Below are positions 1 through 44,860 of a stretch of DNA of 64,000 nucleotides, in pieces (position 1 is the stretch's first letter; each line of letters opens with the position of its first letter). The notes below the pieces were generated by a model, which saw only the letters and a list, made by a program, of their open reading frames with translations, searched no databases and was not told the origin of the DNA. Source of the stretch: Candidatus Anderseniibacteriota bacterium (GTDB lineage: Bacteria > Patescibacteriota > Andersenbacteria > UBA10190); assembly GCA_016197005.1 (NCBI GenBank), contig JACPWO010000001.1, positions 474,544-538,543 on the forward strand, given 5' to 3'. Position numbers and translations under genes: made by a program.

Positions 1-855
1 CAAGGAGGCCCGTCGTATTATTACAGCCCGGCTGGCATTCCGGTATATCTAACAAGAACTGCTTCTGCTGCTCAGATTCAACCACCACTGGCCACCCCAC
101 TCCCAGTACCGCAATTCAGCTTGGGACCAGCCCCAAGTTTTTCGCTAGCACCCAGTTCATTCCCGTCTTTGCCGCGTTTTTCTCCCCGTCCTGCTGACGG
201 GGTTTATGTAATTTTAGGTGATTCAATTGCTGCCGGCGCGTATGGCTTTCCCAGCTATCCGAATATTTACGAAGACAATTTAGAAAATACTAATCAGAAG
301 GAACTGGATTCGCGAAACCTGGCTCGAAGCGGCTGGCACAGCAGCCACCTTGCGGCCGCTCTCCAGCAAGATCCTTTGTTTCAACAAAATATTGCCGAAG
401 CTGACGTTATAACAATAAATATTGGTGGAAACGACCTACGAGCAGCCCGCGACCAGTATTACGCCGGCACTTGCGGCGGGGCGGACAATCAAGATTGTCT
501 GCGTCGAGCAGTGCGTGCCTTCGATGCCAACTGGGACGTCATTACCTCTGAGATCAACAGCCGTAAGCCTGCTGGTGCAATTGTCCGTGTCACCGACTTA
601 TATAACCCCTACGTTCGTGAGGATATGGCACAAGGAACGTTTTCAATCCTCCAGCCATATTTTGACCAAGTAAATACTCAGATTTACAACAGTGGTCTAC
701 CAGTGGCTCAAGTCCGTGATGCCTTTAATGGCAGCAATGGATTAACGGATCCAGCAGATCTCGGCTTCATTAGTGCTGATGGTTATCACCCCAACTCAGC
801 TGGCCATCGCGTCATTGCCGCTAAACTGGCTGAATTAGGAACGAGTCTTCCGTAA
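1..855 (+). CDS. SGNH/GDSL-family hydrolase (lipase/esterase-like), 5' partial; frame is open to window start
   Basis: GDSIAAG block near N-term of domain, GGNDL block, DGYHPN C-terminal block typical of SGNH hydrolases; Pro-rich linker upstream; no stop in frame back to position 1. Confidence 0.7.
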   Translation, partial: QGGPSYYYSPAGIPVYLTRTASAAQIQPPLATPLPVPQFSLGPAPSFSLAPSSFPSLPRFSPRPADGVYVILGDSIAAGAYGFPSYPNIYEDNLENTNQKELDSRNLARSGWHSSHLAAALQQDPLFQQNIAEADVITINIGGNDLRAARDQYYAGTCGGADNQDCLRRAVRAFDANWDVITSEINSRKPAGAIVRVTDLYNPYVREDMAQGTFSILQPYFDQVNTQIYNSGLPVAQVRDAFNGSNGLTDPADLGFISADGYHPNSAGHRVIAAKLAELGTSLP

Positions 856-1785
856 ATGAGTAAGGACTTGTTGAAGATCTTCCGGTAGCTCTGCTTCAAT
901 AATTTTCTTCTTACCCGACGGTAACTGAAAGGCAATTCTCTCCGCGTGAAGGAATTGATGGGTAACGCCTTCAGGGGGACGCTGACGCTTGAATGTATAT
1001 AGCGTGTCTCCAACTACTGGGTGTCCCAAAAAATGCATGTGAACGCGAATCTGATGCGTACGACCAGTGAAGATATATACCTGGAATAAGGAAAAATCAT
1101 TTCCGAACGTTTCTTTTAGTTTCCACTCAGTAATGGCCGGTTTACCTTCTAGGAGGTCATCGGATGTACCGGCTGGTATGACCATCCGGCGGTGCGGATT
1201 TCTTTTGCTGCGACCAATTGGGCGGGTAATGCGTCCAAATTTTTCTCCTGGAATACCAAAAACGAGCGCTAGGTACTCTTTACGTGGCCGGTGACGCTTG
1301 AATTGTTCCTTCAGCCTCGTATATGCCTCGGCCGTTTTCGCCAGCAGGAGAACGCCGCTTGTATCTTTATCTAGGCGATGCACAATTCCTGGCCGACCAG
1401 GATCACCCACCTCCGCACTTCGAGGATAGCGGGCAGCAAACCACGCACTAATGGTTGGGCCGCGCTCGGCGGGAGCGGGGTGAACCGAAATTCCTGCCGG
1501 CTTATTAATTGCCAGCATGTCCTTATCTTCATAGATAATGGGAATTTTGAGGCTGCTTGAGTCTGGGGCTGGCTCAGTATTTTCTGGTGGCACAATGTTT
1601 ACCGTAATGGTGTCATCGACGCGGAGAGTCTGTTTTGGTTTCACTACCACACCATTTAGCATTATGCCGCCTGCTTTAATCGCACGCTGGAGAGCAGCTC
1701 GAGAGTACTGCGGAAAATGCGCAGCACACCACACGTCGAGACGTTGTCCTGATTCTTCTTTACTTACGGTTAGTAGTTCTGGCAT
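835..1785 (-). CDS. rluD: RluA-family 23S rRNA pseudouridine synthase (RluD-like) with N-terminal S4 domain
   Basis: S4-like RNA-binding N-terminus; catalytic motif HRLDKDTSGVLLLAKT with conserved Asp. Confidence 0.85.
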   Translation of the reverse strand: MPELLTVSKEESGQRLDVWCAAHFPQYSRAALQRAIKAGGIMLNGVVVKPKQTLRVDDTITVNIVPPENTEPAPDSSSLKIPIIYEDKDMLAINKPAGISVHPAPAERGPTISAWFAARYPRSAEVGDPGRPGIVHRLDKDTSGVLLLAKTAEAYTRLKEQFKRHRPRKEYLALVFGIPGEKFGRITRPIGRSKRNPHRRMVIPAGTSDDLLEGKPAITEWKLKETFGNDFSLFQVYIFTGRTHQIRVHMHFLGHPVVGDTLYTFKRQRPPEGVTHQFLHAERIAFQLPSGKKKIIEAELPEDLQQVLTHLRKTRS

Positions 1786-3838: not shown

Positions 3839-5083
3839 ATGCGTTTCCTTGCTACTACTAAAATTGCTTTCGCCTCTCTTCGCTCCAATCTCTTGCGATC
3901 GTTTCTGACGATCCTCGGCATTATTATCGGTGTCCTTTCTATTGTTTTAATCGTGGCCTTGGGGCAGGGAGCACAGGACTTAATTTTAAGTGAATTCGAA
4001 GGGGTTGGAGCAACCGCAGTGATTTTACGTCCCGGTAAACAACCAACCGGGCCGGCAGACTTTAGTGACACCTTGTTTTCGGAATCTATAAAAGACCGTG
4101 ATATTGAAGCATTGCGAAAAAAAGAAAATGTACCCAACGCTGTTTCTATTGACCCCTCAGTAATTGTTCCGGGAGCGGTGTCCTACGGAGATGAGCTATA
4201 CCGCCCGACAACGTTTGGTTGGACTGCTACAGCCATAGAAGAACTCCTCGATATTCAACCAGAAAGCGGTGAATTTTTCACCGCTGACGACATCCGGGAG
4301 CGGGCAAAAGTGGCAGTTATCGGTTCAAAAGTAAAAGAGGAGCTATTTGGTGACGACGATCCAATCGGCCAATCTATTACTATTCGCAATCACAACGTTA
4401 AGGTTATTGGTACGTTCCCCTCCAAAGGACAGCTAGCCTTCTTTAATATTGATGAAGTTGTACTGCTTCCCTATACGACTGCGCAGCGGGATATTTTAGC
4501 AATTGATTATTATCAAGAAATATTTATTCGCGCCGATAGCGAAGAAAATATTAACTTCGTAGTACAAGATGTCGAAGCAACGATGCGCGAACAGCATAAT
4601 ATTACCGACCCGGAAAAGGATGACTTCTTTGTAAATACGCAAAAAGACGCGGTAGAGTCGATTAGCACTGTTACCGATGTACTCACGATTTTCTTAGTTG
4701 CCATTGCCTCAATTGCTCTCGTTGTCGGGGGTATTGGGATTATGAATATTATGTTGGTATCTGTTACCGAGCGAACAAAGGAAATTGGTCTACGTAAAGC
4801 AGTCGGGGCTACTAACCGCGATATTTTAACTCAATTTCTCATTGAAGCCGTCATGCTTACTGTCGGCGGCGGTTTAATTGGTACTACCGGTGCCATCGCG
4901 CTAGCGGCCCTGGCCGCATTAGTTATTCGCCAGCAATTTGCCCTTGATTGGCCCTTATCCGTACCGTTCGGCGCAATCGCGCTCGGTATTGGCGTGGCGA
5001 GCGCAGTTGGGCTGGCTTTTGGTCTGTACCCTGCTCGTCAGGCCTCCCGCAAACACCCTATTGAGGCGCTCCGATACGAGTAG
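3839..5083 (+). CDS. ABC transporter permease, FtsX/MacB family
   Basis: N-terminal TM, large periplasmic domain, C-terminal 3-TM FtsX-type bundle; operonic with ATPase. Confidence 0.85.
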   Translation: MRFLATTKIAFASLRSNLLRSFLTILGIIIGVLSIVLIVALGQGAQDLILSEFEGVGATAVILRPGKQPTGPADFSDTLFSESIKDRDIEALRKKENVPNAVSIDPSVIVPGAVSYGDELYRPTTFGWTATAIEELLDIQPESGEFFTADDIRERAKVAVIGSKVKEELFGDDDPIGQSITIRNHNVKVIGTFPSKGQLAFFNIDEVVLLPYTTAQRDILAIDYYQEIFIRADSEENINFVVQDVEATMREQHNITDPEKDDFFVNTQKDAVESISTVTDVLTIFLVAIASIALVVGGIGIMNIMLVSVTERTKEIGLRKAVGATNRDILTQFLIEAVMLTVGGGLIGTTGAIALAALAALVIRQQFALDWPLSVPFGAIALGIGVASAVGLAFGLYPARQASRKHPIEALRYE

Positions 5084-5106
5084 TTCGAACTCCTAAAGAA
5101 AAAATG

Positions 5107-5180
5107 TAGGCTCGCTGGGATTCGAACCCAGGACCTCGGCTTTATAAGAGCCGCGCTCTTACCAACTGAGCTACGAGCCT
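5107..5180 (-). tRNA. tRNA with anticodon UAU (Ile-like, decoding AUA)
   Basis: Manual cloverleaf on minus strand: acceptor AGGCUCG/CGAGCCU, D-arm GCUCAGUUGGUAAGAGC, anticodon stem CGGCU/AGCCG with loop CUUAUAA (U33, anticodon UAU, A37), T-arm CUGGG-UUCGAAU-CCCAG, discriminator A. Confidence 0.75.
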
Positions 5181-5230
5181 GTATATCTGTTTATTGCACG
5201 TTGCAGCGGCTTTGGCTATAGTTTCCTCGC

Positions 5231-5303
5231 GCGCGTGTAGCTCAGTGGTTAGAGCATCACATTGACATTGTGGGGGCCGAAGGTTCGATTCCTTCCACGC
5301 GCA
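5231..5303 (+). tRNA. tRNA-Val (anticodon GAC)
   Basis: Acceptor GCGCGUG/CACGCGC+A73; anticodon stem UCACA/UGUGG loop UUGACAU; T-arm GAAGG-UUCGAUU-CCUUC. Confidence 0.85.
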
Positions 5304-5337
5304 CCCATAAAAAGAGCCGATGCATGATCGGCTCACC

Positions 5338-5766
5338 TTAGAACAAACGCGCTTCCTCTCCGGAGATCAGTACCTTTACGTTGGACGGAGCTACACGAGT
5401 ACGTTTCTCGTCGCCCGGGTAAAGATCAACCAGGAGAGTATAGAGACTGGGAGGTTGTCCATACTTCTCGCGAACTTTTTCAATCTCTGCCTTACTCCTG
5501 ACGCAAAGACCAATTACTTCACCTATCCTTCCGCCGAAAGCACCGCGCCTGAGCCGTACCCGAGCCCGGTAATACGTGCGAAAAAACTTTCGTAATTGAC
5601 GGATGCGAGTTTCGGGCATTTCATCCGGTTTGCCTGTGCCTTGCAATATGAAGGTGATGAATGTGTCACACGCCTCACGCGTACTCGGGACTGGAAACTC
5701 CAAGACTTGCCCAATCCAATCTCTCTGTTCTTCAGAAGGCAGCCGCCTTTTTCTGTTTGTATCCAT
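5338..5766 (-). CDS. hypothetical protein (basic, Arg-rich)
   Basis: 142-aa ORF with GAGGGAG RBS-like sequence upstream; no recognisable motif. Confidence 0.4.
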   Translation of the reverse strand: MDTNRKRRLPSEEQRDWIGQVLEFPVPSTREACDTFITFILQGTGKPDEMPETRIRQLRKFFRTYYRARVRLRRGAFGGRIGEVIGLCVRSKAEIEKVREKYGQPPSLYTLLVDLYPGDEKRTRVAPSNVKVLISGEEARLF

Positions 5767-6272: not shown

Positions 6273-8213
6273 TCAAATCGTCGCTCCAGCTGGTTTCGGA
6301 GTAGTAGTCGGGGATGGTTCCGAAGAGGCCCCTGGAAGTGGGTCTCCGAGCGTATCTGGATCAATACCCCCCATAAGGTCAGCAAATTCAGTTTGGCCAA
6401 TCGTTTCTTTTTGCAGAAGCGTTTTGGAGATGAGCTCAAATTTATCCTGGTACTTCACTAGAATGTCATGTGCTCGCGTTTGGGCAGTCTTAAGCAACTC
6501 AGATACTTCTTCATCAATCGTAGCGGCTGTTTTTTCTGAGTATTCCCGCGCTTCATGCATTTCCTTGCCCAAGAAGACAAATTCATCTTTATGGCCATAC
6601 GTAACAGGCCCTAATTTACTCATTCCAAACTGAGTAACGATACGTCGAGCAAGTTTTGTTGCTTTGGATAAATCGCTACTGGCACCAGTTGTCAGCTCCT
6701 TGAACTTTAGTAGTTCAGCGGTATACCCACCCATCAGCGTTGCAAGTTCGCTCAAGAAGCCGGTACGGGTGTGATAGTGTTTGTCGTGCTCGGGTAACTT
6801 CAAGGTATAACCGCCAGCGTGACCGCGAGAAATGATAGAAATCTTTCGGACCGGATCAGAGTCTGGAGTGTAATAGGCCACAATCGCATGCCCAGCCTCA
6901 TGATAAGCCGTCAGTTCCTTATCTTTTTGTGAGAATACTCGACTGCGTTTTTCTGGCCCTAAGAGAACTTTTTCAATCGATTCCTCTAAGTGCATTTGCT
7001 CTACTTTTTCGGCATCCTTCCGGGCCGCGAAGATAGCAGCTTCATTCACCAGGTTGGCTAGGTCGGCGCCAGAAAAGCCCGGGGTGCGTTCAGCAATGTT
7101 GCGCATCTTCACATCGCTTGCCAACGGAACTTTAACAGAGTGAATCTTTAAAATTGCTTCTCGCTCCTGAATATCTGGGAGTTCCATCGTTACTTGTCGG
7201 TCGAAACGACCCGGACGAAGCAACGCTGGATCGAGAACGTCAGGACGATTTGTCGCTGCGAGAACAACCACTCGGTCAGTCTGCTCGAAACCATCCATTT
7301 CAACGAGAATCTGGTTTAAGGTTTGCTCGCGCTCATCGTGCCCACCGCCAAGACCAGCTCCGCGATGACGGCCAACGGCATCGAGCTCGTCGATAAAGAG
7401 AATCGCGGGAGCATGACGCTTCACTTTCTTGAAAATATCACGAGTACGAGCAGCGCCGACTCCAACAAACATTTCGACAAAATCTGATCCTGAAATACTA
7501 AAGAAAGGAACGCCAGCTTCACCCGCCACTGCTCGAGCCATCAACGTTTTACCTGTTCCTGGAGCGCCAATAAGTAATACACCCTTCGGAATTCGAGCAC
7601 CCATGCGATGAAACTTCTTTGGGTGCTTTAAGAACTCAACAACTTCTTGGAGTTCTTGTTTTGCTTCTTCATTACCAGCGACATCTTTAAATGTTGTTCG
7701 TTTTTTCCCTTTCTTAGCATCAACTGGAGCAGTCATCATCTGACCAAACGTCATCGCCCGATTTCCAGTGGCTTGAGCAGAACGCATCATGAACCACAAG
7801 AAAGCTCCTAGGAGAATAAACGGTAGGAGAAGCGGGATTAAGGTAGATATCCAGAAACCAAAGCCAGAAGGCTTTACTACTGTCAGCTCAATATTGTTGA
7901 GCTTACTTTCAGAAACACCAAGGTTACGAAACGTTTCCGTTACGGACGCATCCGGTTCTTTTTGCGTTACTAGTGTCGACGTCCCGTCTTTTAATTTTAC
8001 CTGCAGCTCGCTCTGGTCGACTGTTATATTTGAAACATTATCTTTGCTAATTTCGGAGGCAATGCGAGAAAGACTAGCGTCTTCGGTACGCTCCAAGGGG
8101 CGGCCATAGAAGCTCACAAGAGTGGCTCCAGCCAGAACAACGAGAAGAATAACACCTATGTTTTTACCTACGTTTTCCCGCCGAAATGGAGGGAGTGAAG
8201 TTGGAACTTTCAT
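6273..8213 (-). CDS. ftsH: ATP-dependent zinc metalloprotease FtsH
   Basis: Two N-terminal TMs, AAA Walker A GPPGTGKT, SRH region, Zn-binding HEAGHA. Confidence 0.95.
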
Positions 8214-8604
8214 ATACTAAAGCTATATCAATTAGGGCTATGAATAAAACGAGTGCGTTCCTGGAATATGCCGTGATCAGCCCCTCATTGCAAGTTTCTT
8301 CATTTTGGGCTAATTTGAGCCTCGGGTGGAAGCTCTTTTCAGTGGGTCATTCTCACACGGGAGATGGGAATGGCTCTGGTGAATCTCTTAACGCAAATCC
8401 ACGAAAGGAATGGAAGGGGTTTAAAAGCCCGAGATTCTCTGTTCAAAGTGTGCAGTAATTTCCGGGCAAAGAGAGCCTCTCTCAACGACGTCAGACAAGC
8501 TCAAAATGATTTTCGTGATGCGATTCGTTTGGCGCCACCTGCAGTTGCAGAGATGAAGAGGGAGTTGCTTGAAGGGCAATAACAACGAGTTAGCCCGCAA
8601 CCTA

Positions 8605-8637
8605 GCTAAGAATATGGATGTTCTTAGCTTTTTTTAT
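8605..8637 (+). terminator. Rho-independent terminator-like hairpin (GCTAAGAA-loop-TTCTTAGC followed by T8)
   Basis: Perfect 8-bp stem, 8-nt loop, then TTTTTTTATTT on plus strand. Confidence 0.5.
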
Positions 8638-8674
8638 TTGAGCTTTATCTCCTGATACTCGAGAATTGAGGCAA

Positions 8675-8749
8675 GCCCTCGTAGCTCAGTGGATCCAGAG
8701 CACTCCCGTCCTAAGGGAGGTGTCGTAGGTTCGATTCCTGCCGAGGGCA
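8675..8749 (+). tRNA. tRNA-Arg (anticodon CCU)
   Basis: Acceptor GCCCUCG/CGAGGGC+A73; anticodon stem CUCCC/GGGAG loop GUCCUAA; T-arm GUAGG-UUCGAUU-CCUGC. Confidence 0.8.
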
Positions 8750-8750
8750 C

Positions 8751-11326: not shown

Positions 11327-13537
11327 ATGAGGGTGGCTTCCATCGATATCCAAGGATTCAAATCCTTCGCTAAAAAGACTCGCATTGATCTAACCGAGGG
11401 GATAACGGCTGTTATTGGTCCTAACGGCTCCGGTAAAAGCTGTGTTGTCGACGCCGTCAGGTGGGTTCTAGGAGAACAATCAATAAAACAGCTGCGCGGT
11501 AAGGCAAATACTGACATTATTTTTCACGGCAGTGAAGTGCTGCCACCGGCCCGCCGAGCAGAAGTTACGATTACCTTCGATAACGAATCGGGACGGTTCC
11601 CCTTGCCCAGCGCCACGGTCGCAGTAACTCGCCGCCTTACACGTGATGGTGAGAGTAGTTACCAAGTAAATCGCGAAGATGTGCGACTGCTTGATCTCCA
11701 ACAAATGCTGGCGCAAGCCGGAATTGGGGCAAAAACGTTTACGGTAATTTCTCAAGGCATGGTTGACCGTTATATCACCGCCTCACCAGCTGAACGTAAG
11801 GAATTATTTGATGATGCCACCGGCATCAAGCCACTGCAGCTCAAACTCATGGAAGCTCACCGCAAACTGAAGAAAACGCAGCAGCACGCACTAGAAATTG
11901 AAACCACTATTCGTGAGCTGGAGCCTCGTCTTAAAGTTTTGGCACGACAAATAAAACGGTATGAGCAACGAGAAAAAATCCAGGAGGCTTTTACCGTTAG
12001 CCAAGTACAGTGGTTTTCTCATGCCTGGCACAATGTGCGTCAACGTTTGACTGATTTAACAGCCCAGCAAGCTGAAGTAAGTAGGACAATTAAACAAGCT
12101 CGATCGCACCGCGAAACGTTAGAGAAAAAACTTATTACTGGTACGGGAACCCATAATCATGGGCTACACGCAGAGCTAACAACAGCGAATCAGGAGCTAG
12201 CAGCTGCTCAAAAAATATATAACGAGCGCACGCACGCACGAGTTCAACTGGAAAAGCTAATACAAGAAGCGCAGCTACAACTACAGCGAGCAGATAAGGC
12301 TCTTCAGGCCGTTACAACAAGGAGCCAGCCACTCGATTGGGTAGGCAATGTCACTCAACTACTTGAGCGTTGTCAAAAACTCTTACTTAAGATTGCTAAA
12401 AATCCAGCCACGACCACAACTGAAGCAGAGGCTATGGCCGATCAAATTCAAGAAAGCCTACAAACTCTTAAAAATACTTCAGCGGACACATTAATTCGCT
12501 CCGCCGCTGACGAACTCACGCGACCAGCAGCAGAGCTAGCGCGGATCGAGGCAATCCTGGAAGAACGGAAAAGGCAACTAGATGCTCTCCCCCCTCTGGA
12601 GGCACCTTCCTCCGCTCAAGTGGAGAAATTAACAAAACAACTAGCCAACCAGGGTGCCGTGCCTTTATCTGAAGACTCATTGGCTAGTCAGTTATCTTCG
12701 GCCAGACAAAACGAGCTAGCCGCCGAACGAGCAGACGGGGCGCTCGAAGCTGCTCTCGAACAAGCACGCATTGACTTAGCTCAACTGGAAAACGATATCT
12801 TACGGGAGCGCGGATCGCAGGCCTTGTCCACAATGCAACAAAAACCACCAGCTGAAAGTGGTCATACTCCATCTGAAGAAGAGCTACGACAACTCGCTGG
12901 TAAATTAGCGGCCTTAGGCGAACCAGATCCTCTCGTCATTAAAGAATATGGCGAAGTAGAGGAGCGGTATGAAAATCTAACCGCACAAATTGCTGATATT
13001 CGTTCTGCAGCAACCAACATTGTTGATCTCATGGGAACACTCCACACCCAAATGCAGAAACAATTTGGAGAAAAATTTCATGTCATACGCGCGGCTTTTA
13101 CGCGAGCATTTGTCGAACTGTTTGGTGGGGGCAATGCCGAACTTATGTTGATAGAAGAAGGAATAGACATTTCAGTTACTCCTCCCGGGAAAAGATCTCG
13201 ACATATTGGGCTGCTGTCTGGCGGAGAGAGAGCCTTAACATCGCTGGCGCTCTTGATGGCTATTTTAGAAGCGCAGTCGCCGCCCTTTATTGTCCTCGAT
13301 GAGGTTGATGCCGCGCTCGACGAAGCTAACTCTCAGCGGTTCTCTCACCTCTTGAGAGAGCGCTGCCACAACACTCAATGTATTGTCGTTACTCATAACC
13401 GTGAGGCCATGGCCTCAGCCGATGTTCTGTATGGGGTGACAATGCAGCAAAAAGGTGTTTCCAGCGTATATTCGGTAAAACTAGCCGATATTACGGAGAC
13501 GGATATGGGACAAGCTCATCAGGAAATCTCCATTTGA
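11327..13537 (+). CDS. smc: SMC-family chromosome segregation ATPase, unusually short (736 aa), no recognisable hinge
   Basis: N-terminal IQGFKSFA + Walker A GPNGSGKSCVVDAVRWVLGE; C-terminal LSGGERALTSLALLMAIL signature and FIVLDEVDAALDE Walker B; coiled-coil-like middle. Confidence 0.75.
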   Translation: MRVASIDIQGFKSFAKKTRIDLTEGITAVIGPNGSGKSCVVDAVRWVLGEQSIKQLRGKANTDIIFHGSEVLPPARRAEVTITFDNESGRFPLPSATVAVTRRLTRDGESSYQVNREDVRLLDLQQMLAQAGIGAKTFTVISQGMVDRYITASPAERKELFDDATGIKPLQLKLMEAHRKLKKTQQHALEIETTIRELEPRLKVLARQIKRYEQREKIQEAFTVSQVQWFSHAWHNVRQRLTDLTAQQAEVSRTIKQARSHRETLEKKLITGTGTHNHGLHAELTTANQELAAAQKIYNERTHARVQLEKLIQEAQLQLQRADKALQAVTTRSQPLDWVGNVTQLLERCQKLLLKIAKNPATTTTEAEAMADQIQESLQTLKNTSADTLIRSAADELTRPAAELARIEAILEERKRQLDALPPLEAPSSAQVEKLTKQLANQGAVPLSEDSLASQLSSARQNELAAERADGALEAALEQARIDLAQLENDILRERGSQALSTMQQKPPAESGHTPSEEELRQLAGKLAALGEPDPLVIKEYGEVEERYENLTAQIADIRSAATNIVDLMGTLHTQMQKQFGEKFHVIRAAFTRAFVELFGGGNAELMLIEEGIDISVTPPGKRSRHIGLLSGGERALTSLALLMAILEAQSPPFIVLDEVDAALDEANSQRFSHLLRERCHNTQCIVVTHNREAMASADVLYGVTMQQKGVSSVYSVKLADITETDMGQAHQEISI

Positions 13538-14448: not shown

Positions 14449-17010
14449 ATGAAATTCCTGTACCGCGTATTTTCTCACCTTCTCCTTGCAACGCTCTTGT
14501 TGCCGGTTCATACTCTACACGCACAGCAAACACCTGAACTATCTCCAAGCTTGTTTGTCCGAGATATTGTAGCTTCTGCTGAAAACGAAACCATTTCTGG
14601 CTCATTCCGCGCTATTAGCCAAAGCGACAACATTGTTGGCGGTATCTACTACCAGATGGCAGTGCTTTCCACCCTGCCAGAAGCGCCAGAGGGAGAATTA
14701 ATTGCTGATGATCCGATTATATACAGTCAAGAAGTAGTTCCCGCTAATCTTAGCTTCCAACCAAAAGAAGAGCAGGTAGTTAATTTTTCTCATGCGTTAC
14801 CGACAGTCCCGACTGGCACTTATCGATTTCGTGTTCAGCTGACAACAGCAAACGGCCGAGATCTCGGTTGGTGGGATCAAGATGTTGTCTTAACTTCCGA
14901 TTCATCTGGATTTATTGATCTCAGACCAATAGCTGTCTTGGTTGATAGTGTCGATCCTCGCGTTAAGCTTTTTGATCAACAAGGGAGTGGTGACAACAAT
15001 ATTAATGAATTCTATCCGGAATTAACTGATTCCTTAAATCCCCCAGAAGCGAATCGATCGGAATGGGGACCGCTCGAAGGCGTTAATGTCGACGCTGGAG
15101 CTACTGCCCAATTGCGTGCTGATGCTACTAACATTGGCACCGGCTCATTGACTGGCACCATTACAGCTTCGGTTAAACGAGACCTCACCACCACGACGAC
15201 GGCCGAGTCTAAAGTGTTACGTGCAATATCACTCACACCGAACCAAACAGAAACTCTTACTATTCCATTTACGTCCCCGCAAGCTGCTGGTGCCTATGAA
15301 ATATTTTTGATGGTTCGAGATGAGAATAACAATTTGGTTAGTTCTATTGGTGAATACCGCCTGGTTGTTCGTGGTCCTTCAGCATCTGTCATCAGTGTGC
15401 TCACGCAAAAATTGAGCGTAACCAAAGGTGATCCGATTGAGTTCACCGTGAATATAGTTGGCCCAGCTGATGGTGAAACAACAATCGCCGGAACAGCAGA
15501 GGTTTCATTACTTGATGGCGCAACGGTGGTCAGTAGCCAAAGTACGGCCGTACAACTTGCGATGGAACCTATAACCATAGAGGGAAGCCTTGTCCCCGAT
15601 CGCGATATTACTGGTAACCCCAAGTTACGAGTAACGCTTAAGGATGGCACCGGAAATATTCTTGATACATATGAAGTCGAGTTTCCGCGCGATGGAATAG
15701 CAGCCGCATCAACATCGCAGGCAACGGATCCCAAGGGGTCCAGCACAAAAATCATTATTGCTGTTGGACTCGCTCTTCTCCTGCTGCTCCTAGGTCTTTT
15801 CTACCGGTATCGTTCTCCCAAGACTCCTATTCCTCCCGTTGCAACAACGACTCTGCTTCTTATCCTGTTAGTCGGTGGGTTATTCACAACAAATCAAACC
15901 GGGAAAGCGAACCATGAATACACTAGTAATTTGGCGGTGGGTAATTATTTAAAAAAGACTAGTGATGGCGGCGGAACAGAGACTTTCATAAACTCGCCGA
16001 TGCACAATGAAACCTTTGTGGGAGGACAGACTATCTCATATAGTGCTTCTTCTACTTTTTGGAACTGTAATAATACAGCACATCGATATAACTATTGGAA
16101 TGTAAACTTGGCTACTTCAGGAGGGAAAGTATCATCTCACGAACAAGCAAGTAGTTGGAATAAGGTACTGGCTTTTCCGACTGTTGCGTTTGGGAAAGGT
16201 AAAGTAACAAGAACGGTAAGCGGGACATTTACATTGTCTCCGTCATATCCTGGAAATTCAACAACTATGTGGAATGAAATATGGTGGAACGGTCATGGAA
16301 GTTATAGGTTGCGTAGTATCATGACGTGGCTCAACGTTAGCAGCCCAACACCTACAGCCACACCAACCGTAACTGCTACTCCGACCCCAACACCTACAGC
16401 CACACCAACTCCCACGCCGACAGAAACTACTCCTGTTCAAAGTCCGTCGCTTGTTTTCACTGCTGACCCAACATCTGTTCCGTATGGAGACAAAACCACC
16501 CTCCAGTGGTCAACAACGAATACAACGAGCTGCTGGGCCGAGCAAGGATGGACTGGCTGGAAAAATCATTTAGGTGGTACTGAGCTTTCTGCCGAGCTTA
16601 CCCAGACTACAACATTCAGTCTTGAGTGCTGGAATGCGGTGGGAGTATCAAGCGGTAAAAAGTTTGTTACTGTTCAGGTTACTCAACCTTCTGAACCCAT
16701 GCTCGTATTTACTGGCGACCCTTTATCTGTACCTATTGGCGGGACAAGCACACTTACGTGGCAAGCAACAAATGCCACCGCTTGCACGGCTAGTCTCGGC
16801 TGGAGCGGTAATAAAAATAACGTCAGCGGTACACAAGTTACTGCACCCCTGACTCAAAGCACAACCTACGCGCTATCATGTCAAAACGCCGCTGGGGTAT
16901 CGACGGGACCAAAGTTTGTAACCATTACGGTCATTGGCGGTCCACCTACACCCACACCCACGCCAACGCCTACGCCCATAGACGATGGACCATTCCAAGA
17001 AGAAGAATAA
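14449..17010 (+). CDS. Large cell-surface protein: signal peptide, extracellular domain, central TM hairpin, PT-rich linkers and two tandem ~85-aa repeat domains
   Basis: N-terminal signal peptide MKFLYRVFSHLLLATLLLPVHTLHA; two hydrophobic helices ~aa 437-480; PTPTATPT linkers; repeats SLVFTADPTSVPYG.../MLVFTGDPLSVPIG... each ending KFVTVQV/KFVTITV. Confidence 0.7.
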   Translation: MKFLYRVFSHLLLATLLLPVHTLHAQQTPELSPSLFVRDIVASAENETISGSFRAISQSDNIVGGIYYQMAVLSTLPEAPEGELIADDPIIYSQEVVPANLSFQPKEEQVVNFSHALPTVPTGTYRFRVQLTTANGRDLGWWDQDVVLTSDSSGFIDLRPIAVLVDSVDPRVKLFDQQGSGDNNINEFYPELTDSLNPPEANRSEWGPLEGVNVDAGATAQLRADATNIGTGSLTGTITASVKRDLTTTTTAESKVLRAISLTPNQTETLTIPFTSPQAAGAYEIFLMVRDENNNLVSSIGEYRLVVRGPSASVISVLTQKLSVTKGDPIEFTVNIVGPADGETTIAGTAEVSLLDGATVVSSQSTAVQLAMEPITIEGSLVPDRDITGNPKLRVTLKDGTGNILDTYEVEFPRDGIAAASTSQATDPKGSSTKIIIAVGLALLLLLLGLFYRYRSPKTPIPPVATTTLLLILLVGGLFTTNQTGKANHEYTSNLAVGNYLKKTSDGGGTETFINSPMHNETFVGGQTISYSASSTFWNCNNTAHRYNYWNVNLATSGGKVSSHEQASSWNKVLAFPTVAFGKGKVTRTVSGTFTLSPSYPGNSTTMWNEIWWNGHGSYRLRSIMTWLNVSSPTPTATPTVTATPTPTPTATPTPTPTETTPVQSPSLVFTADPTSVPYGDKTTLQWSTTNTTSCWAEQGWTGWKNHLGGTELSAELTQTTTFSLECWNAVGVSSGKKFVTVQVTQPSEPMLVFTGDPLSVPIGGTSTLTWQATNATACTASLGWSGNKNNVSGTQVTAPLTQSTTYALSCQNAAGVSTGPKFVTITVIGGPPTPTPTPTPTPIDDGPFQEEE

Positions 17011-18202: not shown

Positions 18203-18408
18203 GATCAATACGATCCTTAACGGGTTGATACAATCCAAACAAAGAACACGCACTATTCTCAGTCAAAGTTCCAGACCAAAAGTGGTCACAGAGAATGTGC
18301 CCTCTTTTTTGTTTTAGGGGTCATGATCGTTTAACAATTTGCTACGGAATTATACGTTAAATTACGTTCTAGTCTGCGTATTTATACGCGACTACAAACG
18401 TCTTTCTA

Positions 18409-19878
<1,470 letters not shown>

Positions 19879-20118
19879 AGGGAGAAAACTGACGTTGTGT
19901 CGTGGTTAACCAGACACAACGCCCTAGAGGTCGACTTTGTCACTTTGACAAGGCTTGCTCGTAAAGAGCCGCGGAGAGCATATCCTCCACGAAAAACATG
20001 TGATATGCAACAAATAGAAAGACTACTTTGTAGTCGCGTATAAGAACGTAGAACATAGGCCGCCCTTAGGGCGGCTTTGTGTTGCAAAAGATACATTTTA
20101 AGGGTTAAATGGCACTAC

Positions 20119-20191
20119 GCGCGTGTAGCTCAGTGGTTAGAGCACCACACTGATAATGTGGGGGTCGAAGGTTCGATTCCTTCCACGCGCA
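20119..20191 (+). tRNA. tRNA-Ile (anticodon GAU)
   Basis: Acceptor GCGCGUG/CACGCGC+A73, anticodon stem CCACA/UGUGG loop CUGAUAA; near-identical to tRNA-Val at 5231. Confidence 0.9.
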
Positions 20192-20233
20192 CAAACAAAT
20201 GCACCTTCTGAACCTTTACCAAGGATCTATTAA

Positions 20234-20626
20234 ATGTCTAAATCTAGGCCAAAAACAAAGTTAGTTCGCTTTGGTCAGTATTTACAAGATTTACGGATAA
20301 CTAGAAAAAAGGGCTCTCAAAGAAAGGTTGCTACTGCCTTGAAATCACAAGGTCATCAGGTAACACAAGGCGCTATTGCACAGTATGAAGGGGGGCTGGT
20401 CACAAACCCGCATTACGAATTGCTCTCCGCCCTAGCACGACTCTACGATGAGCCATACGAAAACATGATCGTGCAATTAGTTGCCGATAAATACAAAGTG
20501 AAACCGCCTCCTGAGCAATTATCAGGTAGTTCTCTCCCAGTTCGCCCTGCGATTCGCTTGGAATTTCGAGACATCGACAGTTTGCGCGAAGCTGGTGAGT
20601 GGTTCTTCAACAAGATGCGACAGTGA
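20234..20626 (+). CDS. XRE-like helix-turn-helix DNA-binding protein
   Basis: N-terminal basic region followed by HTH-like segment (QRKVATALKSQGHQVTQGAIAQYEGG); 130 aa. Confidence 0.5.
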   Translation: MSKSRPKTKLVRFGQYLQDLRITRKKGSQRKVATALKSQGHQVTQGAIAQYEGGLVTNPHYELLSALARLYDEPYENMIVQLVADKYKVKPPPEQLSGSSLPVRPAIRLEFRDIDSLREAGEWFFNKMRQ

Positions 20627-20642
20627 GACTGTTACTTCAGCG

Positions 20643-20675
20643 CCCTCGCAGGTAAAACTGCGAGGTTTTATTTCC
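20643..20675 (+). terminator. Terminator-like hairpin (CCCTCGCAG-GTAAAA-CTGCGAGG then TTTTATTT)
   Basis: 8-9 bp stem and T-rich tail just after the HTH gene stop. Confidence 0.4.
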
Positions 20676-20712
20676 TGATTACTCATTCTTAATTACCAGT
20701 TACTATTCACTT

Positions 20713-22149
20713 ATGACACTGCCACCAGAAGTTCAATCTGCCCTGAAAATACTCCACGATGCTGGCTTTGCCGCTTATGGCGTCGGTGGTGGCGTACGGG
20801 ATTTGCTTCTGAATAAAAAACCAAAGGACTGGGACGTTACAACGAATGCCAAGCCTGAGGAAATTCAGAAACTATTTCCAAAAAGTTTTTATGCCAATCA
20901 GTTTGGGACCGTCACTATTCTCACGACGAGCGAAGATCCTTCTCTAAAAGAAATTGAGATTACAACGTACCGGTCAGAAAAAGGATACTCGGACCAACGC
21001 CATCCCGACGAAATAGCATTTGTTTCAAACTTAGAAGAGGACTTGGCTCGTCGTGACTTCACCATTAATGCAATTGCTCTCGACGAAGAGACAGTGGTTG
21101 ATCCTTTCGATGGCCAAGCTGACCTGGCAGGCAAACTGGTGCGAGCAGTTGGCAACCCGAAGGAACGGTTTGCGGAAGATGCGCTGCGTTTGTTACGAGC
21201 AGTGCGCCTCGCAACTGAACTTAACTTTGAGATAGAACCAAAAACACTCGCCGCTGTTACACAATATGCTCCCGCTATTACCGCCGTGTCGCATGAGCGG
21301 GTACGAGATGAATTAATAAAACTGGTAAAGAGTGACTATCCGGAAAAGGGAATGAATCTTCTCAAAGAGACAGGGCTCTTAGCGCTTATCCTCCCCGAAG
21401 TTGCTGAGGGTATTGCCGTCGGACAAAATCGTCACCACATTTATACCGTCTTTGAGCATAATATTAAGTCACTCCAGTACGCGGCTACGTACAAGTACCC
21501 CTTTCACGTCCGTCTAGCTGCTCTTCTTCATGACATCGGTAAACCGCGTACGAAACGATTCGATAAAAAGATTAATGACTATACGTTTTATGCCCACGAT
21601 ATTGTTGGATCACGCATGGCGGAAAAAGTATTGAAGCGTCTTAAGTTTTCGAAAAAGATGACCGACACTATAACGCATTTAGTTCGTCATCACATGTTCT
21701 ATTACGACGTTGGCAAAGTTACTGAGGCGGGCGCCCGGCGCCTGCTGCGACGAGTCGGCAAGGAACACTTCGACGATCTCATCAAGCTTCGCATTGCTGA
21801 ACGTAAAGGCTCGGGCGTGCCCAAGGCAGAACCATATCGACTCCGTCACTTGCAGTTCATGGTTGAAAAGGCCGCTCAAGAACCTATCTCCGTGAAGGAA
21901 CTTAAAATTACCGGTCGCCACTTACAGGAACTTGGCATGAAAGCAGGACCAATTTTTGGTGGTATTTTGAATGCTCTCCTCGCCGAAGTACTAGAAGATC
22001 CAATAAAAAATACGAAAGAATATTTACTCAAACGTGCAGTGGAGCTTAAGGATAAAAATCCTGATGAACTTAAAAAATTAGGTGAGGTAGCGGCGCAAGA
22101 AGAAGAATTGAAGCGTGAGGAAGACATTAAGAAAAAGTATCGGGTATAA
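20713..22149 (+). CDS. cca: CCA-adding enzyme (tRNA nucleotidyltransferase) with HD domain
   Basis: Pol-beta NTase head GVGGGVRDLLLNKKPKDWDVTT, RRDFTINA motif, HD-domain histidines (LLHDIGKP, HDIV). Confidence 0.85.
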   Translation: MTLPPEVQSALKILHDAGFAAYGVGGGVRDLLLNKKPKDWDVTTNAKPEEIQKLFPKSFYANQFGTVTILTTSEDPSLKEIEITTYRSEKGYSDQRHPDEIAFVSNLEEDLARRDFTINAIALDEETVVDPFDGQADLAGKLVRAVGNPKERFAEDALRLLRAVRLATELNFEIEPKTLAAVTQYAPAITAVSHERVRDELIKLVKSDYPEKGMNLLKETGLLALILPEVAEGIAVGQNRHHIYTVFEHNIKSLQYAATYKYPFHVRLAALLHDIGKPRTKRFDKKINDYTFYAHDIVGSRMAEKVLKRLKFSKKMTDTITHLVRHHMFYYDVGKVTEAGARRLLRRVGKEHFDDLIKLRIAERKGSGVPKAEPYRLRHLQFMVEKAAQEPISVKELKITGRHLQELGMKAGPIFGGILNALLAEVLEDPIKNTKEYLLKRAVELKDKNPDELKKLGEVAAQEEELKREEDIKKKYRV

Positions 22150-22156
22150 TAAAGAC

Positions 22157-22408
22157 ATGTCTTTTGGATCCTTCATCTTTGGTTTTCTTATTATGATCGT
22201 TGGTATGTTTATGGTTATCCGCACCAACTGGTTCCTGGAAAACTTGGGTGATCTTGGTTCTATGATTGGTGTCTACGATAAATCCTGGCTCAGCTGGAAA
22301 GCCTTTGGTGTTTTTCTCATCTTCCTCGGGTTCTCAATTGCTTTTAGTTTATTCACGATCCTGATAAAGGCAACGATCGGCCAACTCTTTGTCTTTGGCG
22401 GATTGTAA
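22157..22408 (+). CDS. small 3-TM membrane protein, hypothetical
   Basis: 84 aa, hydrophobic helices; first internal ATG after the cca stop chosen. Confidence 0.4.
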   Translation: MSFGSFIFGFLIMIVGMFMVIRTNWFLENLGDLGSMIGVYDKSWLSWKAFGVFLIFLGFSIAFSLFTILIKATIGQLFVFGGL

Positions 22409-22409
22409 G

Positions 22410-22480
22410 TGGACCTGGGGAGAATCGAACTCCCATCCCCCGGATGCAAACCGGGTGCTCTGCCACTAAGCTACAGGCCC
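22410..22480 (-). tRNA. tRNA-Ala (anticodon UGC), opposite strand to the rRNA genes
   Basis: Acceptor stem with G3:U70 identity pair, anticodon stem CCCGG/CCGGG loop UUUGCAU, T-arm GGGAG-UUCGAUU-CUCCC, discriminator A. Confidence 0.9.
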
Positions 22481-22521
22481 TTGGTATCAACTTTGAAGCA
22501 GTATGCCTAAAGGCGTTGCTT

Positions 22522-22551
22522 TTGACAACACACGTATTTCTGCGCTATAAT
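22522..22551 (+). promoter_or_regulatory. sigma70-like promoter (TTGACA -18- TATAAT) for the downstream membrane-protein gene
   Basis: -35 TTGACA 22522-22527; perfect -10 TATAAT 22546-22551; GAGAGGAGG RBS before ATG 22616; the -35 region is a near-palindrome (TTTGACAA) that could also serve a minus-strand promoter for tRNA-Ala. Confidence 0.5.
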
Positions 22552-22615
22552 AATTTCAGATACGAGACCGATTTTCCTTCGAAATTAATACTACGAGAGG
22601 AGGTGTTACGAGACT

Positions 22616-23317
22616 ATGGCTGTAAATTCATCATTCGGTACGTGGACTGACGCTGTTGTCACGTCGTTAACAGATTTGTGGCTTCAGTTTGTCTCTTTCA
22701 TCCCGAATTTAGTCGCAGCACTGGTTGTCTTTTTTATTGGATGGGCAATTTCTATCGCAGTTGGCCGTCTAATTGAAAAAGCTCTCGTTGTGTTGCGAAT
22801 CAATGAAGCATTTGGAAGTTTGCAAGGACTGAAGCAAGCAGTAGCTCAAGCAGGGCTTAAGCTCAACGTTGCTCACGTGGTTGGCGAAATCTTCAAGTGG
22901 TTCCTCCTTATCGTGACGGTACTCGCCACGACAGATATCTTGGGACTTAATGAAGTATCACAATTCTTGCGATCAGTATTGCTTTATATTCCGAACGTAG
23001 TAGTAGCCGCACTCATCCTCGTAATTTCGGTGGTGCTGGCAAACTTCGTTTATCGAACAGTACTCGCAAGCGTCGAAGCAGCTGGCTTTACCAGCGGCGG
23101 CGCAGTTGCCTTAGTAAGCAAATGGGCGATCATCATCTTCGCTATCTTTGCTGCTTTGCTCCAATTGAATGTAGCGACGCCTTTGATTCAGACATTCCTA
23201 ACTGCCCTCTTCGCCATGATCGCCATCGCTGGCGGTCTAGCGTTTGGCTTAGGTGGCAAGGAACTGGCTGCCAAATGGCTTAAGAAGTTCGAACAAGACC
23301 TTTCTGGACGTAAATAA
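22616..23317 (+). CDS. Multi-TM membrane protein with repeated conserved TM-helix motifs (MscS N-terminal-like)
   Basis: 233 aa, ~6 TM helices with internal repeat character. Confidence 0.45.
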   Translation: MAVNSSFGTWTDAVVTSLTDLWLQFVSFIPNLVAALVVFFIGWAISIAVGRLIEKALVVLRINEAFGSLQGLKQAVAQAGLKLNVAHVVGEIFKWFLLIVTVLATTDILGLNEVSQFLRSVLLYIPNVVVAALILVISVVLANFVYRTVLASVEAAGFTSGGAVALVSKWAIIIFAIFAALLQLNVATPLIQTFLTALFAMIAIAGGLAFGLGGKELAAKWLKKFEQDLSGRK

Positions 23318-23337
23318 TAACGACTAGAAAAACAAAA

Positions 23338-23366
23338 AACGGTGCCTGCAGTAGGGCCGTTTTTTG
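23338..23366 (+). terminator. Imperfect terminator-like hairpin followed by TTTTTT
   Basis: AACGGTGCC-loop-GGGCCGTT then T6, 20 nt after stop. Confidence 0.4.
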
Positions 23367-23382
23367 CGTTTTAAGGCTCCTG

Positions 23383-23410
23383 TTGACAGCTTTTGCAGGT
23401 TATATATAGT
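23383..23410 (+). promoter_or_regulatory. Candidate separate 23S rRNA promoter (TTGACA -16- TATAGT)
   Basis: -35 TTGACA 23383-23388; -10 TATAGT 23405-23410; ~355-nt leader to 23S 5' end. Confidence 0.5.
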
Positions 23411-24382
23411 GTCTATTAGCTATATGCAGAAAGCTTTTAACTGCAAGACCCCACGAAGCGGCTAGGCCGAAATCTTTTCGAGCCCACCAAAACCGCTTCC
23501 TCTGGACAAGCGGTTTTTTAGTAGCCGCTACAACACAAGCCATCGATAGAATAATGGTTCTCAACAATTATTCCTCTGTGGCTTGTTTGATTGAACACTG
23601 CCAATTGAATAAGCAATATCATTGCAATTGAACGATCACCAATAGTAGTAATTAGAAATCAAAAACAAGGAGCGATGTTGATCAGCGCTTGGGGCGCGGA
23701 TACGCATCGCTAGCTATACAAAAATAGCAAAGCATGCAGCTCATGACGGTGTGAATGAAATTCATACACCGTAAGGGTATACAGGTGGATGCCTTGGCAA
23801 TGGACGACGATGAAGGACGTGGCAGGCTACGATAAGCTGCGGGGAGGTGCCTAGCAACCGGCGATCCGCGGATGTCCGAATGGGGAAACCCGGCTTTGTG
23901 AATAACGAAGTCACTTTCTTACTGCAAGGTAGGATAGAGTAAACCTAGCGAACTGAAACATCTTAGTAGCTAGTGGAAAAGAAAAGAACGATCTTTGTTT
24001 CTCTTTAGAATTCCGTTCTCTCTTTCCCGTTTCCTGCAAAGGAAATTGGATTTGGGAGAACTGGTAATTTTACTGTTGAAGACAACGATTACATTCCCTT
24101 AGTAGTGGCGAGCGAAACGGGAACAGCCCAAACTTACATTTATGTAAGTGTTGTAGGGTATCGTTATATAGATAAGAGATATGTGCCTAGTAGAACGGGC
24201 TGGAATGCCCGGCCATAGAAGGTGAGAGCCCTGTAAACGAAAGGTATATTTCTTAACTTACGATATTCCTGAGTAGGGCGGGACACGTGAAATCCTGCCT
24301 GAACCCGGGAGAACTATCAAAATCCTCTGTGTTTTGGCTTCGGCCAGAACATAGTGGATCTCCCAAGGCTAAATACGACCAT

Positions 24383-24429
<47 letters not shown>

Positions 24430-25866
24430 GGAAGGGGAATGAAATAGACCTGAAACCGTATACCTACATCGAGTCGGAGGCTGCTCGCAAGAGCGGCTGA
24501 CGGCGTGCTTTTTGCAGAACGAACCACCGAGTTCGCTGTACACGGCTTAGGTTAAGTCTCATTCGAGACGAAGCCAGAGCGAAAGCGAGTGTTAATAGCG
24601 CGATTATGTCGTGTGCACGAGACCCGAAACCAGGTGATCTACCCATGAGCAGGGTGAAGTGTCGCGAAAGCGTACATGGAGGCCCGAACCGGTTGGCCGT
24701 ACAATACCATCGGATGACTTGTGGGTAGGGGAGAAATTCCAATCGAACCTGGAAATAGCTGGTTCTCGCCGAAATAGCTTTCGGGCTAGCCTCGTATAAT
24801 GAACTAATCAGTGGTAGAGCACTGCAAGGGATCTTCCGTCCTTTTGGATGGGGACCCTAGCAAACTCCGAATGCTGGTTAGGAATGTACGGGAGTCAGAA
24901 CGCGGGGGCTAAGCTCCGCGCTCAAAAGGGGAACAGCCCAGATCGTAATTTAAGGTCCCTAAATCTTACCTAAGTGGGAAAGGTAGTGGGATTGCTAAGA
25001 CAGCCAGGCAGTTGGCTTAGAAGCAGCCACCTGTTAAAGAAAGCGTAACAGCTCACTGGTCAAGCGATCCTGCGCCGAAAATGTAACGGGGCTCAAGGTA
25101 AGTACCGAAAATACGGAGTATTGTCTTTTAAGACAAAATTGGTAGGCGAGCGTTTCAGTCTGCGTCGAAGGTGTACCGTGAGGTATGCTGGAGCGGCTGG
25201 AAGTGAGAATGGTGGTATGAGTAGCAAGACACAAGGTGAGAGTCCTTGTCACCGAAAGCCTAAGGTTTCCTGGGCAATGTCGATCATCCCAGGGTTAGTC
25301 GGTCCTAAGGCGAGGCCGAAAGGCGTAGTCGATGGACAGCAGGTCGATATTCCTGCACCGTCTATAGCGTTCACAAGGCTTGACGGATCGTTAGAGCATG
25401 TCAGGACATATGACTTATCCTGCAGCAACTATTAGACAGAGTGTTTTGGTAAATCCGGACACTTGTTACGTTGAAAGTTGTTGGGCGAGCGCGGCCTTCG
25501 GGCCAAGCCGCTATATGGGAAAACGGTCCCCGGAAAAGCGTCGTGTGATTTCCGCTATGGGCGTCCGTACCGCAAACCAACTCAGGTAGGCAAGTGTGAG
25601 AGTACTAAGGTGATCGGGAGAAACCTCGTTAAGGAACTCGGCAAAAAAGCAGCCGTACGTTCGCAATAAGGCTTGCCCTGTCTTTATGGCAGGGCCGCAG
25701 CGACTGATCTCTGGCGACTGTTTAACAAAAACACAGGTCCCTGCTAACTCGTAAGAGGATGTATAGGGGCTGACGCCTGGCCAGTGTCGGAAGGTCAATC
25801 CTGGGGGTGAAAGCTCTCAGGCCAAGCCCCGATGAACGCCGGCCGTAACTATAACGGTCCTATGGT

Positions 25867-27577: not shown

Positions 27578-27694
<117 letters not shown>

Positions 27695-27719
27695 TTTTCT
27701 GAATTGAAACCCTTCAAAC

Positions 27720-40338: not shown

Positions 40339-40347
40339 CTGCATCCA

Positions 40348-42895: not shown

Positions 42896-42901
42896 GAAGT
42901 C

Positions 42902-43801: not shown

Positions 43802-43815
43802 GCTATACTAACGCC

Positions 43816-44778: not shown

Positions 44779-44860
44779 GAAGAACTTTGGCAGGCCGGTA
44801 TCTTAATTAGGCTATAGCTTCTTTCTTTGCCAAACTCTGTTAGAATATGTCTAACTTGCT

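Follow-up and report, generated by a model that had tools for sequence, protein, structure and literature searches.

The canonical bacterial system for AUA consists of tRNA-Ile2(CAU) and TilS, and the latter, found in approximately 98% of bacteria, has been called the evolutionarily stable wobble-modification system (PMC6063277). Bacterial tRNA-Ile(UAU) has been presented as "rare cases": the count stood at nine species in 2013 and at 19 in 2014, and a 2026 preprint continues to use the word "rare". Taniguchi et al. (2013, PMC3575796) described the Mycoplasma mobile system and listed nine species, from three clades, with a tRNA-Ile(TAT) gene and no tilS, and a suppressor of a tilS deletion in Bacillus subtilis indicated that the switch takes few mutational steps (Kohrer et al. 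2014, PMC3919564). No paper linking tilS or lysidine with CPR bacteria was found in the literature searched. In the locus described here, a functional tRNA-Ile(UAU) derived from tRNA-Ile2(CAU) probably replaces the TilS/lysidine system, in Andersenbacteria and in a large surrounding part of the CPR/Patescibacteria.

A tRNA-Ile gene with the anticodon TAT was called by ARAGORN at 5106-5180 on the minus strand of the window (the whole 64-kb stretch of DNA analysed), and the Rfam tRNA model RF00005 covered 5107-5180 of the same strand end to end: 75.5 bits (E-value, 9.7e-15; gathering score, 29), with no non-canonical pairs flagged in the match. When read from the sequence, all of the stem pairs were Watson-Crick (21/21): AGGCUCG/CGAGCCU in the acceptor stem, GCUC/GAGC in the D stem, CGGCU/AGCCG in the anticodon stem, and CUGGG/CCCAG in the T stem. 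The 7-nt anticodon loop was C32 U33 U34 A35 U36 A37 A38, the discriminator base was A73, and the first pair was A1-U72. The first-pass annotation had described a minus-strand cloverleaf with UAU, U33, and A37, and every detail was borne out by ARAGORN, Rfam, and the reading of the sequence; covariance-model folding, which it had named as a possible refutation, returned the same anticodon and nothing pointing to a pseudogene. The feature is a genuine, canonical tRNA gene, far beyond chance. Since it encodes no CCA, the CCA-adding enzyme is needed, and a gene for one was present in the window (Table 1). A T-run was found 3' of the tRNA gene, a separate terminator-like hairpin ended the upstream unit on the ftsH side, and a sigma-70 promoter scan around the tRNA gene gave no match. 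Among the eight tRNA genes detected in the window by ARAGORN, tRNA(CAU) was absent, and tRNA-Ile(GAU) and tRNA-Ile(UAU) together formed a complete AUH decoding set.

Table 1. Coordinates of the features discussed, in the window and in related loci.
Feature	Location	Coordinates	Strand	Remarks
RluD-like pseudouridine synthase gene	window	835-1785	-	
tRNA-Ile(UAU)	window	5107..5180	-	ARAGORN and Rfam tRNA (75.5 bits); tRNA-Ile2-type backbone; proposed sole AUA decoder
tRNA-Val(GAC)	window	5231..5305	+	conserved neighbour of the AUA-decoding tRNA gene
ftsH	window	6273..8213	-	Pfam Peptidase_M41 and AAA; syntenic anchor, tRNA(UAU) downstream
ftsH-upstream slot (tilS site in CPR relatives)	window	8214..8674	.	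small ORF only
tRNA-Arg(CCU)	window	8675-8750		next after the small ORF of the ftsH-upstream slot
Long ORF without Pfam match	window	14449-17010	+	
rRNA operon	window	18406-27695		5S also present
16S rRNA	window	18406-19876		
tRNA-Ile(GAU)	window	20119..20192	+	major AUU/AUC isoleucine tRNA; ARAGORN and Rfam (78.8 bits); inside rRNA operon
HTH gene	window	20234-20626		16S-23S spacer
CCA-adding enzyme	window	20713..22149	+	Pfam PolyA_pol, PolyA_pol_RNAbd, tRNA_NucTran2_2, HD; 16S-23S spacer
tRNA-Ala(UGC)	window	22409-22480	opposite	16S-23S spacer
MscS-like gene	window	22616-23317		16S-23S spacer
23S rRNA	window	23760-27482		
Group I intron in 23S rRNA	window	25851-26102		
Region of several large ORFs without Pfam match	window	38812-48808		
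Long ORF without Pfam match	window	38812-40338		
Long ORF without Pfam match	window	40348-42147		
Long ORF without Pfam match	window	44861-46720		
Long ORF without Pfam match	window	46727-48808		
TraC-like gene	window	49410-50102	-	
TraG/VirB4-like ATPase gene	window	50601-52454	+	
RluD-like synthase gene	L129	12067-12984		
RluD-like synthase gene	L125	13569-14609		
RluD-like synthase gene	L210	18162-19163		
RluD-like synthase gene	L142	~5010-5714		
RluD-like synthase gene	L139	~12100-12813		
RluD-like synthase gene	L136	7060-7686		
RluD-like synthase gene	L123	6968-7666		
ValRS gene with inserted His_Phos_1 domain	L124	1119-4427	-	Magasanikbacteria MAG

The setting was that of chromosomal housekeeping genes: an rRNA operon, dnaA, infB, smc, trmD, and ftsH. 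The FtsH protein was 100% identical to an NCBI protein of Candidatus Andersenbacteria, and the next-best matches bore that name as well, which places the host in the CPR/Patescibacteria, and the tRNA(UAU) gene lay approximately 1.1 kb downstream of ftsH on the same strand.

Other features of the window and of a relative were noted. The tRNA-Val(GAC) and tRNA-Ile(GAU) genes shared 93% identity and had the acceptor, D, and T arms in common, the difference being essentially confined to the anticodon arm, so that one looks like a duplicate whose identity was changed by an anticodon shift. The rRNA operon was unusual: its 16S-23S spacer held, in addition to tRNA-Ile(GAU), the HTH gene and the CCA-adding enzyme gene, an opposite-strand tRNA-Ala(UGC) and an MscS-like gene. 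The 23S rRNA spanned 3,723 nt, as compared with the 2,925-nt model, and contained a group I intron and other insertions (e.g., of 105 and 44 nt, both towards the 5' end). TraC-like and TraG/VirB4-like genes were set among several large ORFs without a Pfam match; a type IV secretion system has reportedly been described for Patescibacteria, with which these genes fit. The long ORFs without a Pfam match encoded 508-853 amino acids, and the position of the 853-aa ORF, between a KH-domain (KhpA-like) gene and trmD, was kept in other assemblies of the same organism. A close FtsH homologue of 1,097 amino acids (P0011) matched PF14528 and PF14890 besides the FtsH domains; we take these to be LAGLIDADG and intein-splicing families, which would make P0011 an intein-containing FtsH in an Andersenbacteria relative.

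No PP-loop/TilS domain was detected by Pfam in the approximately 50 window ORFs scanned, and a search with the SGGxDS motif and a local TilS HMM found no TilS in the 64-kb window. The surroundings of ftsH were compared in an FtsH-anchored sample of 80 related metagenome loci (FtsH identity, 47-77%). In 28 of them, an ORF with the SGGxDS PP-loop motif lay directly upstream of ftsH; all 10 of those checked with Pfam were TilS (PF01171 with TilS_C or TilS domains), and the distance from the end of TilS to the start of ftsH was 0-410 nt in the CPR-type relatives. The tRNA(UAU) gene was found in 24 of the 80 loci and, in 17 of these, lay 9-840 nt downstream of ftsH, on the same strand in all but one. 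The two genes never occurred together in the 52 informative loci (28 with TilS, 24 with UAU), and TilS was absent from all of the approximately 27 UAU loci searched. When only loci in which ftsH was flanked on either side by 1.5 kb or more were counted, tRNA(UAU) alone was found near ftsH in 17 loci, TilS alone in 17, neither in five, and both in none. Fisher's exact test for this distribution (p = 5e-7) overstates the evidence because the loci are related, the exclusivity amounting to a few independent events (approximately 2-3 on the FtsH tree). In the neighbour-joining tree of FtsH, one large UAU clade included the window, a lone UAU locus (L155) lay inside a TilS clade, and a small TilS subclade (L135/L138) lay inside the UAU clade.

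As a check of the bias introduced by anchoring on ftsH, five CPR homologues of the L135 TilS were picked by TilS similarity alone: from a Doudnabacteria-like genome, Doudnabacteria, the "Parcubacteria group", Moranbacteria, and the "Patescibacteria group". In all five, tilS directly preceded ftsH, and an S1-domain gene usually lay ahead of tilS. The ftsH-upstream slot is thus the site of tilS in tilS-bearing CPR genomes. The best 120 of the 6,810 homologues of the L135 TilS carried Doudna-, Torok-, Moran-, and Parcubacteria names and extended down to 36% identity, with non-CPR bacteria included; no Andersen- or Magasanikbacteria names were present among these best 120, and none of the 120 was on a contig matching the Andersenbacteria FtsH contigs in length, which adds weak support for a real loss of tilS. 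On the other hand, five loci with ample flanks (L133, L137, L172, L128, and L148) had neither tilS nor tRNA(UAU) near ftsH, and the positions of both genes can thus change.

The tilS gene is gone from the conserved ftsH-upstream locus in UAU loci. The first-pass annotation had proposed altered AUA decoding and possibly the loss of tilS. This interpretation is supported by the comparison with relatives, in that the tilS slot was empty in every tRNA(UAU) locus and the orthologous tRNA had changed from CAU to UAU (see below). The loss of tilS does not follow from the TAT gene alone: that gene and tilS occur together in Lactobacillus plantarum and L. casei. For the window's organism, a genome-wide loss of tilS appears likely from the gene neighbourhoods compared.

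Relatives that differ in the state of this locus suggested how the change took place. The FtsH proteins of L155 and L158 were 80% identical and the same gene was found upstream; in L158, tilS lay between that gene and ftsH, whereas the two genes abutted in L155. The tRNA order of L155 was that of L147 and L152 (Ile-type on the minus strand, followed by the initiator and elongator Met tRNAs on the plus strand), and its Ile-type tRNA read UAU, being 84% identical to tRNA-Ile2(CAU) of L147, which in turn was approximately 90% identical to E. coli genes annotated as tRNA-Ile. A second set of pairs was provided by the Doudnabacteria-like L135/L211 and L138, in which the gene order was S1 gene-tilS-ftsH-...-tRNA(CAU, Ile2-like)-tRNA-Ala(GGC), and their neighbours L136, L139, and L142, in which the same S1 gene stood beside ftsH, without tilS and followed by tRNA(UAU). 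Furthermore, the TilS-bearing Moranbacteria locus L214 had tRNA(CAU) and tRNA-Val(GAC) in tandem, and UAU loci had tRNA(UAU) and tRNA-Val(GAC) in tandem with the same spacing of 1-4 nt; the adjacency of Ile(UAU) and Val(GAC) was kept in the window.

The window tRNA(UAU) was 81% identical to tRNA-Ile2(CAU) of L147, 76% to the elongator Met, 68% to the initiator, and 65% to its own tRNA-Ile(GAU), comparisons that carry limited weight at tRNA length. The UAU tRNA is the positional orthologue of the Ile2-like CAU genes, and the neighbourhoods indicate that the orthologous tRNA gene reads CAU where relatives have TilS and UAU where they lack it. On the simplest interpretation, C34 of a tRNA-Ile2 gene changed to U at least twice, and tilS was then lost because the change left TilS without a substrate. 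An origin from tRNA-Ile1(GAU), suggested by the clustering of the L140 and L142 tRNAs with the window GAU tRNA in a crude neighbour-joining tree, was rejected as a general explanation in view of the positional orthology with CAU genes and the higher identity to Ile2.

A strict pattern, based on the fixed D arm and T loop of the window tRNA and scanned over 185,579 species genomes, gave two matches, both in Candidatus Magasanikbacteria MAGs, and was too strict for counting the distribution; both copies had the UAU loop and compensatory changes in the stems. The tRNA(UAU) gene was also present in three loci fetched via FtsH homologues: the Andersenbacteria-like GCA_040384205.1 (850-kb contig), with the Val(GAC)/Ile(UAU) pair as in the window; a scaffold with an FtsH named Candidatus Paceibacterota; and Candidatus Yonathbacteria GCA_002789555.1. 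In all, the gene recurred in 29 related loci, and the Ile(UAU)/Val(GAC) pair was seen again in L125, L129, L130, L136, L139, L142, and L210. The first-pass annotation had called a UAU anticodon rare, and this does not hold within the lineage, where it is the rule in the Andersenbacteria, Magasanikbacteria, Yonathbacteria, and Paceibacterota loci.

Among 26 aligned copies of tRNA(UAU), double compensatory changes were found at 16 of the 21 stem pairs, including covariation at all five pairs of the anticodon stem, and 99.5% of the stem cells were paired. The covariation score was 0.783, compared with 0.172 in shuffles and at most 0.156 with slid partners. C32 U33 U34 A35 U36 A37 (CUUAUA) was invariant in these copies, which indicates strong purifying selection. 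Covarying stems around an invariant CUUAUA are the mark of a functional tRNA that is under selection for the UAU anticodon.

The first pair of the acceptor stem varied among these tRNAs. U72 (as A1-U72 or the G1-U72 wobble) was found in tRNA(UAU) of the window, L123, L124, L127, L129, L130, L155, and L210, which represent the Andersenbacteria and Magasanikbacteria groups and the independent L155 lineage; elsewhere, the Ile2(CAU) relatives had G1-C72, and the Paceibacterota-type UAU copies had G1-C72 or C1-G72. U72 in UAU tRNAs may reflect convergence at an identity element. In the Magasanikbacteria MAG L124, a full His_Phos_1 (histidine-phosphatase) domain was inserted in the middle of a ValRS.

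AUA occurred 206 times in 42 window ORFs (15,969 codons): 12.9 per 1000 codons and 20% of the Ile codons. This is regular use, shared by ftsH, infB, and dnaA, and such a frequency would rank as "high" in a recent TilS study (PMC12514573). Across the UAU loci, AUA ranged from 5 to 41 per 1000; its frequency tracked GC content and did not separate the UAU from the TilS lineages. The meaning of the codon was assessed by comparing the codons of UAU-lineage ftsH genes with the residues of TilS-lineage FtsH at the aligned positions. Columns with AUA contained I, V, and L at 37%, 19%, and 17%, respectively; I accounted for 41% in AUU columns and 40% in AUC columns, and M for 35% in AUG columns. Since the profile of AUA was like those of AUU and AUC and unlike that of AUG, the codon appears not to be reassigned and needs a decoder; these alignments indicate that AUA is a working Ile codon.

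In the proposed mechanism, the genomically encoded U34 would pair with A and read AUA directly. The tRNA-Ile(UAU) would descend from the minor tRNA-Ile2(CAU) by the C34-to-U change and would have taken over from the TilS/lysidine system in the lineage, and tilS would have become dispensable at the ftsH-upstream site because the UAU tRNA needs no lysidine. tRNA(UAU) would be charged by IleRS, with A37 presumably modified to t6A; E. coli IleRS requires t6A37 (PMC3575796), with which the invariant A37 is compatible. The mechanism further predicts that both tilS and tRNA-Ile2(CAU) are lacking genome-wide. Misreading of AUG would most likely be avoided by weak U34-G pairing that is tolerated or suppressed by the ribosome, or else by modification of U34; in M. 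mobile (PMC3575796) and B. subtilis (PMC3919564), measurements with the cognate ribosome showed unmodified U34 to be an intrinsically weak binder of AUG. An IleRS that accepts U34 would be expected to have a basic residue where E. coli has W905 or to be of the eukaryote type. No IleRS was found in the window or the fetched loci for the residue equivalent to W905, the only matches being ValRS/LeuRS-like (22-27% identity). We lean slightly towards the broader claim that lysidine was dropped altogether in a part of the CPR/Patescibacteria that is both large and deep (Andersenbacteria, Magasanikbacteria, Yonathbacteria, and other Paceibacterota), with the change from CAU to UAU and the deletion of tilS beside ftsH taking place at least twice independently.

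Among the other explanations, that which survives best accepts the same replacement and differs in the state of U34, which would be modified (e.g., pseudouridylated or with another 5-substituent), so that the modification, not the ribosome, restricts reading to AUA. A gene for an RluD-like pseudouridine synthase was located 0-5 kb from tRNA(UAU) in eight UAU loci, the window and a Magasanikbacteria MAG among them, and in none of the 28 TilS loci. Moreover, eukaryotic tRNA-Ile has the anticodon psi-A-psi, and U34 carries a modification in UAU tRNAs of eukaryotes and of haloarchaeal mutants (PMC3575796; PMC3895270). However, U34 was unmodified in both of the bacterial cases analysed chemically (PMC3575796, PMC3919564), the S4 and PseudoU_synth_2 architecture of the synthase is that of an ordinary rRNA enzyme, and the linkage, which holds within related subclades only and is missing from the UAU loci of the Paceibacterota type, could be no more than synteny. 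The linkage of the synthase may be inherited synteny or may hint at a link with decoding, via helix 69 or the pseudouridylation of U34. We regard modified U34 as a minority possibility, although one to be taken seriously.

A redundant decoder is somewhat less probable and, on balance, unlikely: tilS and tRNA-Ile2(CAU) would be kept at another locus, tilS being merely relocated, and tRNA(UAU) would be an extra reader of AUA. L. plantarum and L. casei have the TAT gene and tilS together (PMC3575796), positions are not fixed, as seen from the five related loci in which neither gene was near ftsH, and the absence of tilS and tRNA(CAU) from the window covers 64 kb of a contig of approximately 576 kb. 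Nevertheless, co-occurrence was not seen in any of the 52 informative loci, and relocation fits poorly with the abutment of tilS and ftsH in the five CPR loci sampled independently of ftsH and with the lack of an Andersen- or Magasanikbacteria TilS among the best 120 of the 6,810 homologues. In addition, the UAU gene corresponds by position to tRNA-Ile2(CAU) itself, so that TilS is deprived of the substrate known for it. Replacement of the lysidine system is therefore preferred to redundancy.

A reassignment of AUA, in which tRNA(UAU) would bear an amino acid other than isoleucine, is highly improbable because AUA aligned with I/V/L columns in the manner of AUU and AUC, not with M, and because the tRNA has a backbone of the tRNA-Ile2 type with A37 and A73 kept. 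Equally improbable, and effectively refuted, is the idea that the gene is a decaying, mobile, or phage-derived copy that plays no part in decoding by the host: tRNA(UAU) is very common on viral contigs (at least 120 matches of a generic pattern), but the gene stands in a chromosomal housekeeping context (ftsH, rRNA operon, dnaA), its site beside ftsH and tRNA-Val(GAC) is kept across lineages in which FtsH is only approximately 51-57% identical, and its perfect cloverleaf has undergone compensatory evolution. The viral matches, which came from loci L003-L122 and included contigs of giant-virus MAGs, suggest in their own right that virus-borne, AUA-reading U34 tRNAs are abundant.

If the replacement of lysidine by tRNA-Ile(UAU) is genome-wide, AUA is decoded without lysidine in a considerable fraction of bacterial diversity. 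If lysidine was abandoned, TilS would not be the near-universal, evolutionarily stable bacterial enzyme that it has been assumed to be, and these bacteria would need their own means of keeping U34 off AUG: IleRS, the ribosome, or an undescribed modification of U34. TilS would also lose value as a marker for all bacteria or as a universal target for antibiotics. Furthermore, L158/L155 and the Doudnabacteria-like loci with their neighbours would provide natural before-and-after pairs for studying the swap of a decoding system, and the discrimination between AUA and AUG by a U34 tRNA could be tested on a second and quite dissimilar ribosome background. The interest of the finding lies in the breadth of the lineage, the apparently repeated origin, and the clean syntenic evidence for the swap.

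In comparison with the canonical system of tRNA-Ile2(CAU) and TilS, the codon, the tRNA backbone, and the neighbourhood (in CPR, S1 gene-tilS-ftsH with tRNA(CAU) nearby) are shared, whereas position 34 in the window is U instead of C and TilS was found neither in the window nor in any UAU locus. L. plantarum and L. casei (PMC3575796) likewise have a bacterial tRNA-Ile(TAT) gene; however, they keep tilS, whereas in the window tilS is missing from its slot and the change affected the Ile2 orthologue itself. The B. subtilis suppressor (PMC3919564) shares TilS-free life by means of an Ile tRNA with U34, but its tRNA arose from tRNA-Ile1 by a G34-to-U change, and the window tRNA is Ile2-like (81% vs 65%), with a C34-to-U change among its relatives. 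tRNA-Ile2(UAU) of M. mobile (PMC3575796) shares the encoded UAU together with A37, the reduced bacterial genome, AUA as an ordinary Ile codon, and the missing tilS, the last of which is shown in the window's lineage for the conserved chromosomal slot. Unlike M. mobile, this lineage belongs to the CPR/Patescibacteria, the trait spans class-level lineages instead of a single species, and the position of tRNA(UAU) is tied to ftsH, next to which tilS formerly lay. The adaptation of M. mobile IleRS is Arg865 (the position of W905 in E. coli), and the window's lineage is compared here by its tRNA and tilS genes alone. The mechanism is thus a known one, of the M. mobile type, and the lineage in which it occurs is new and much broader.
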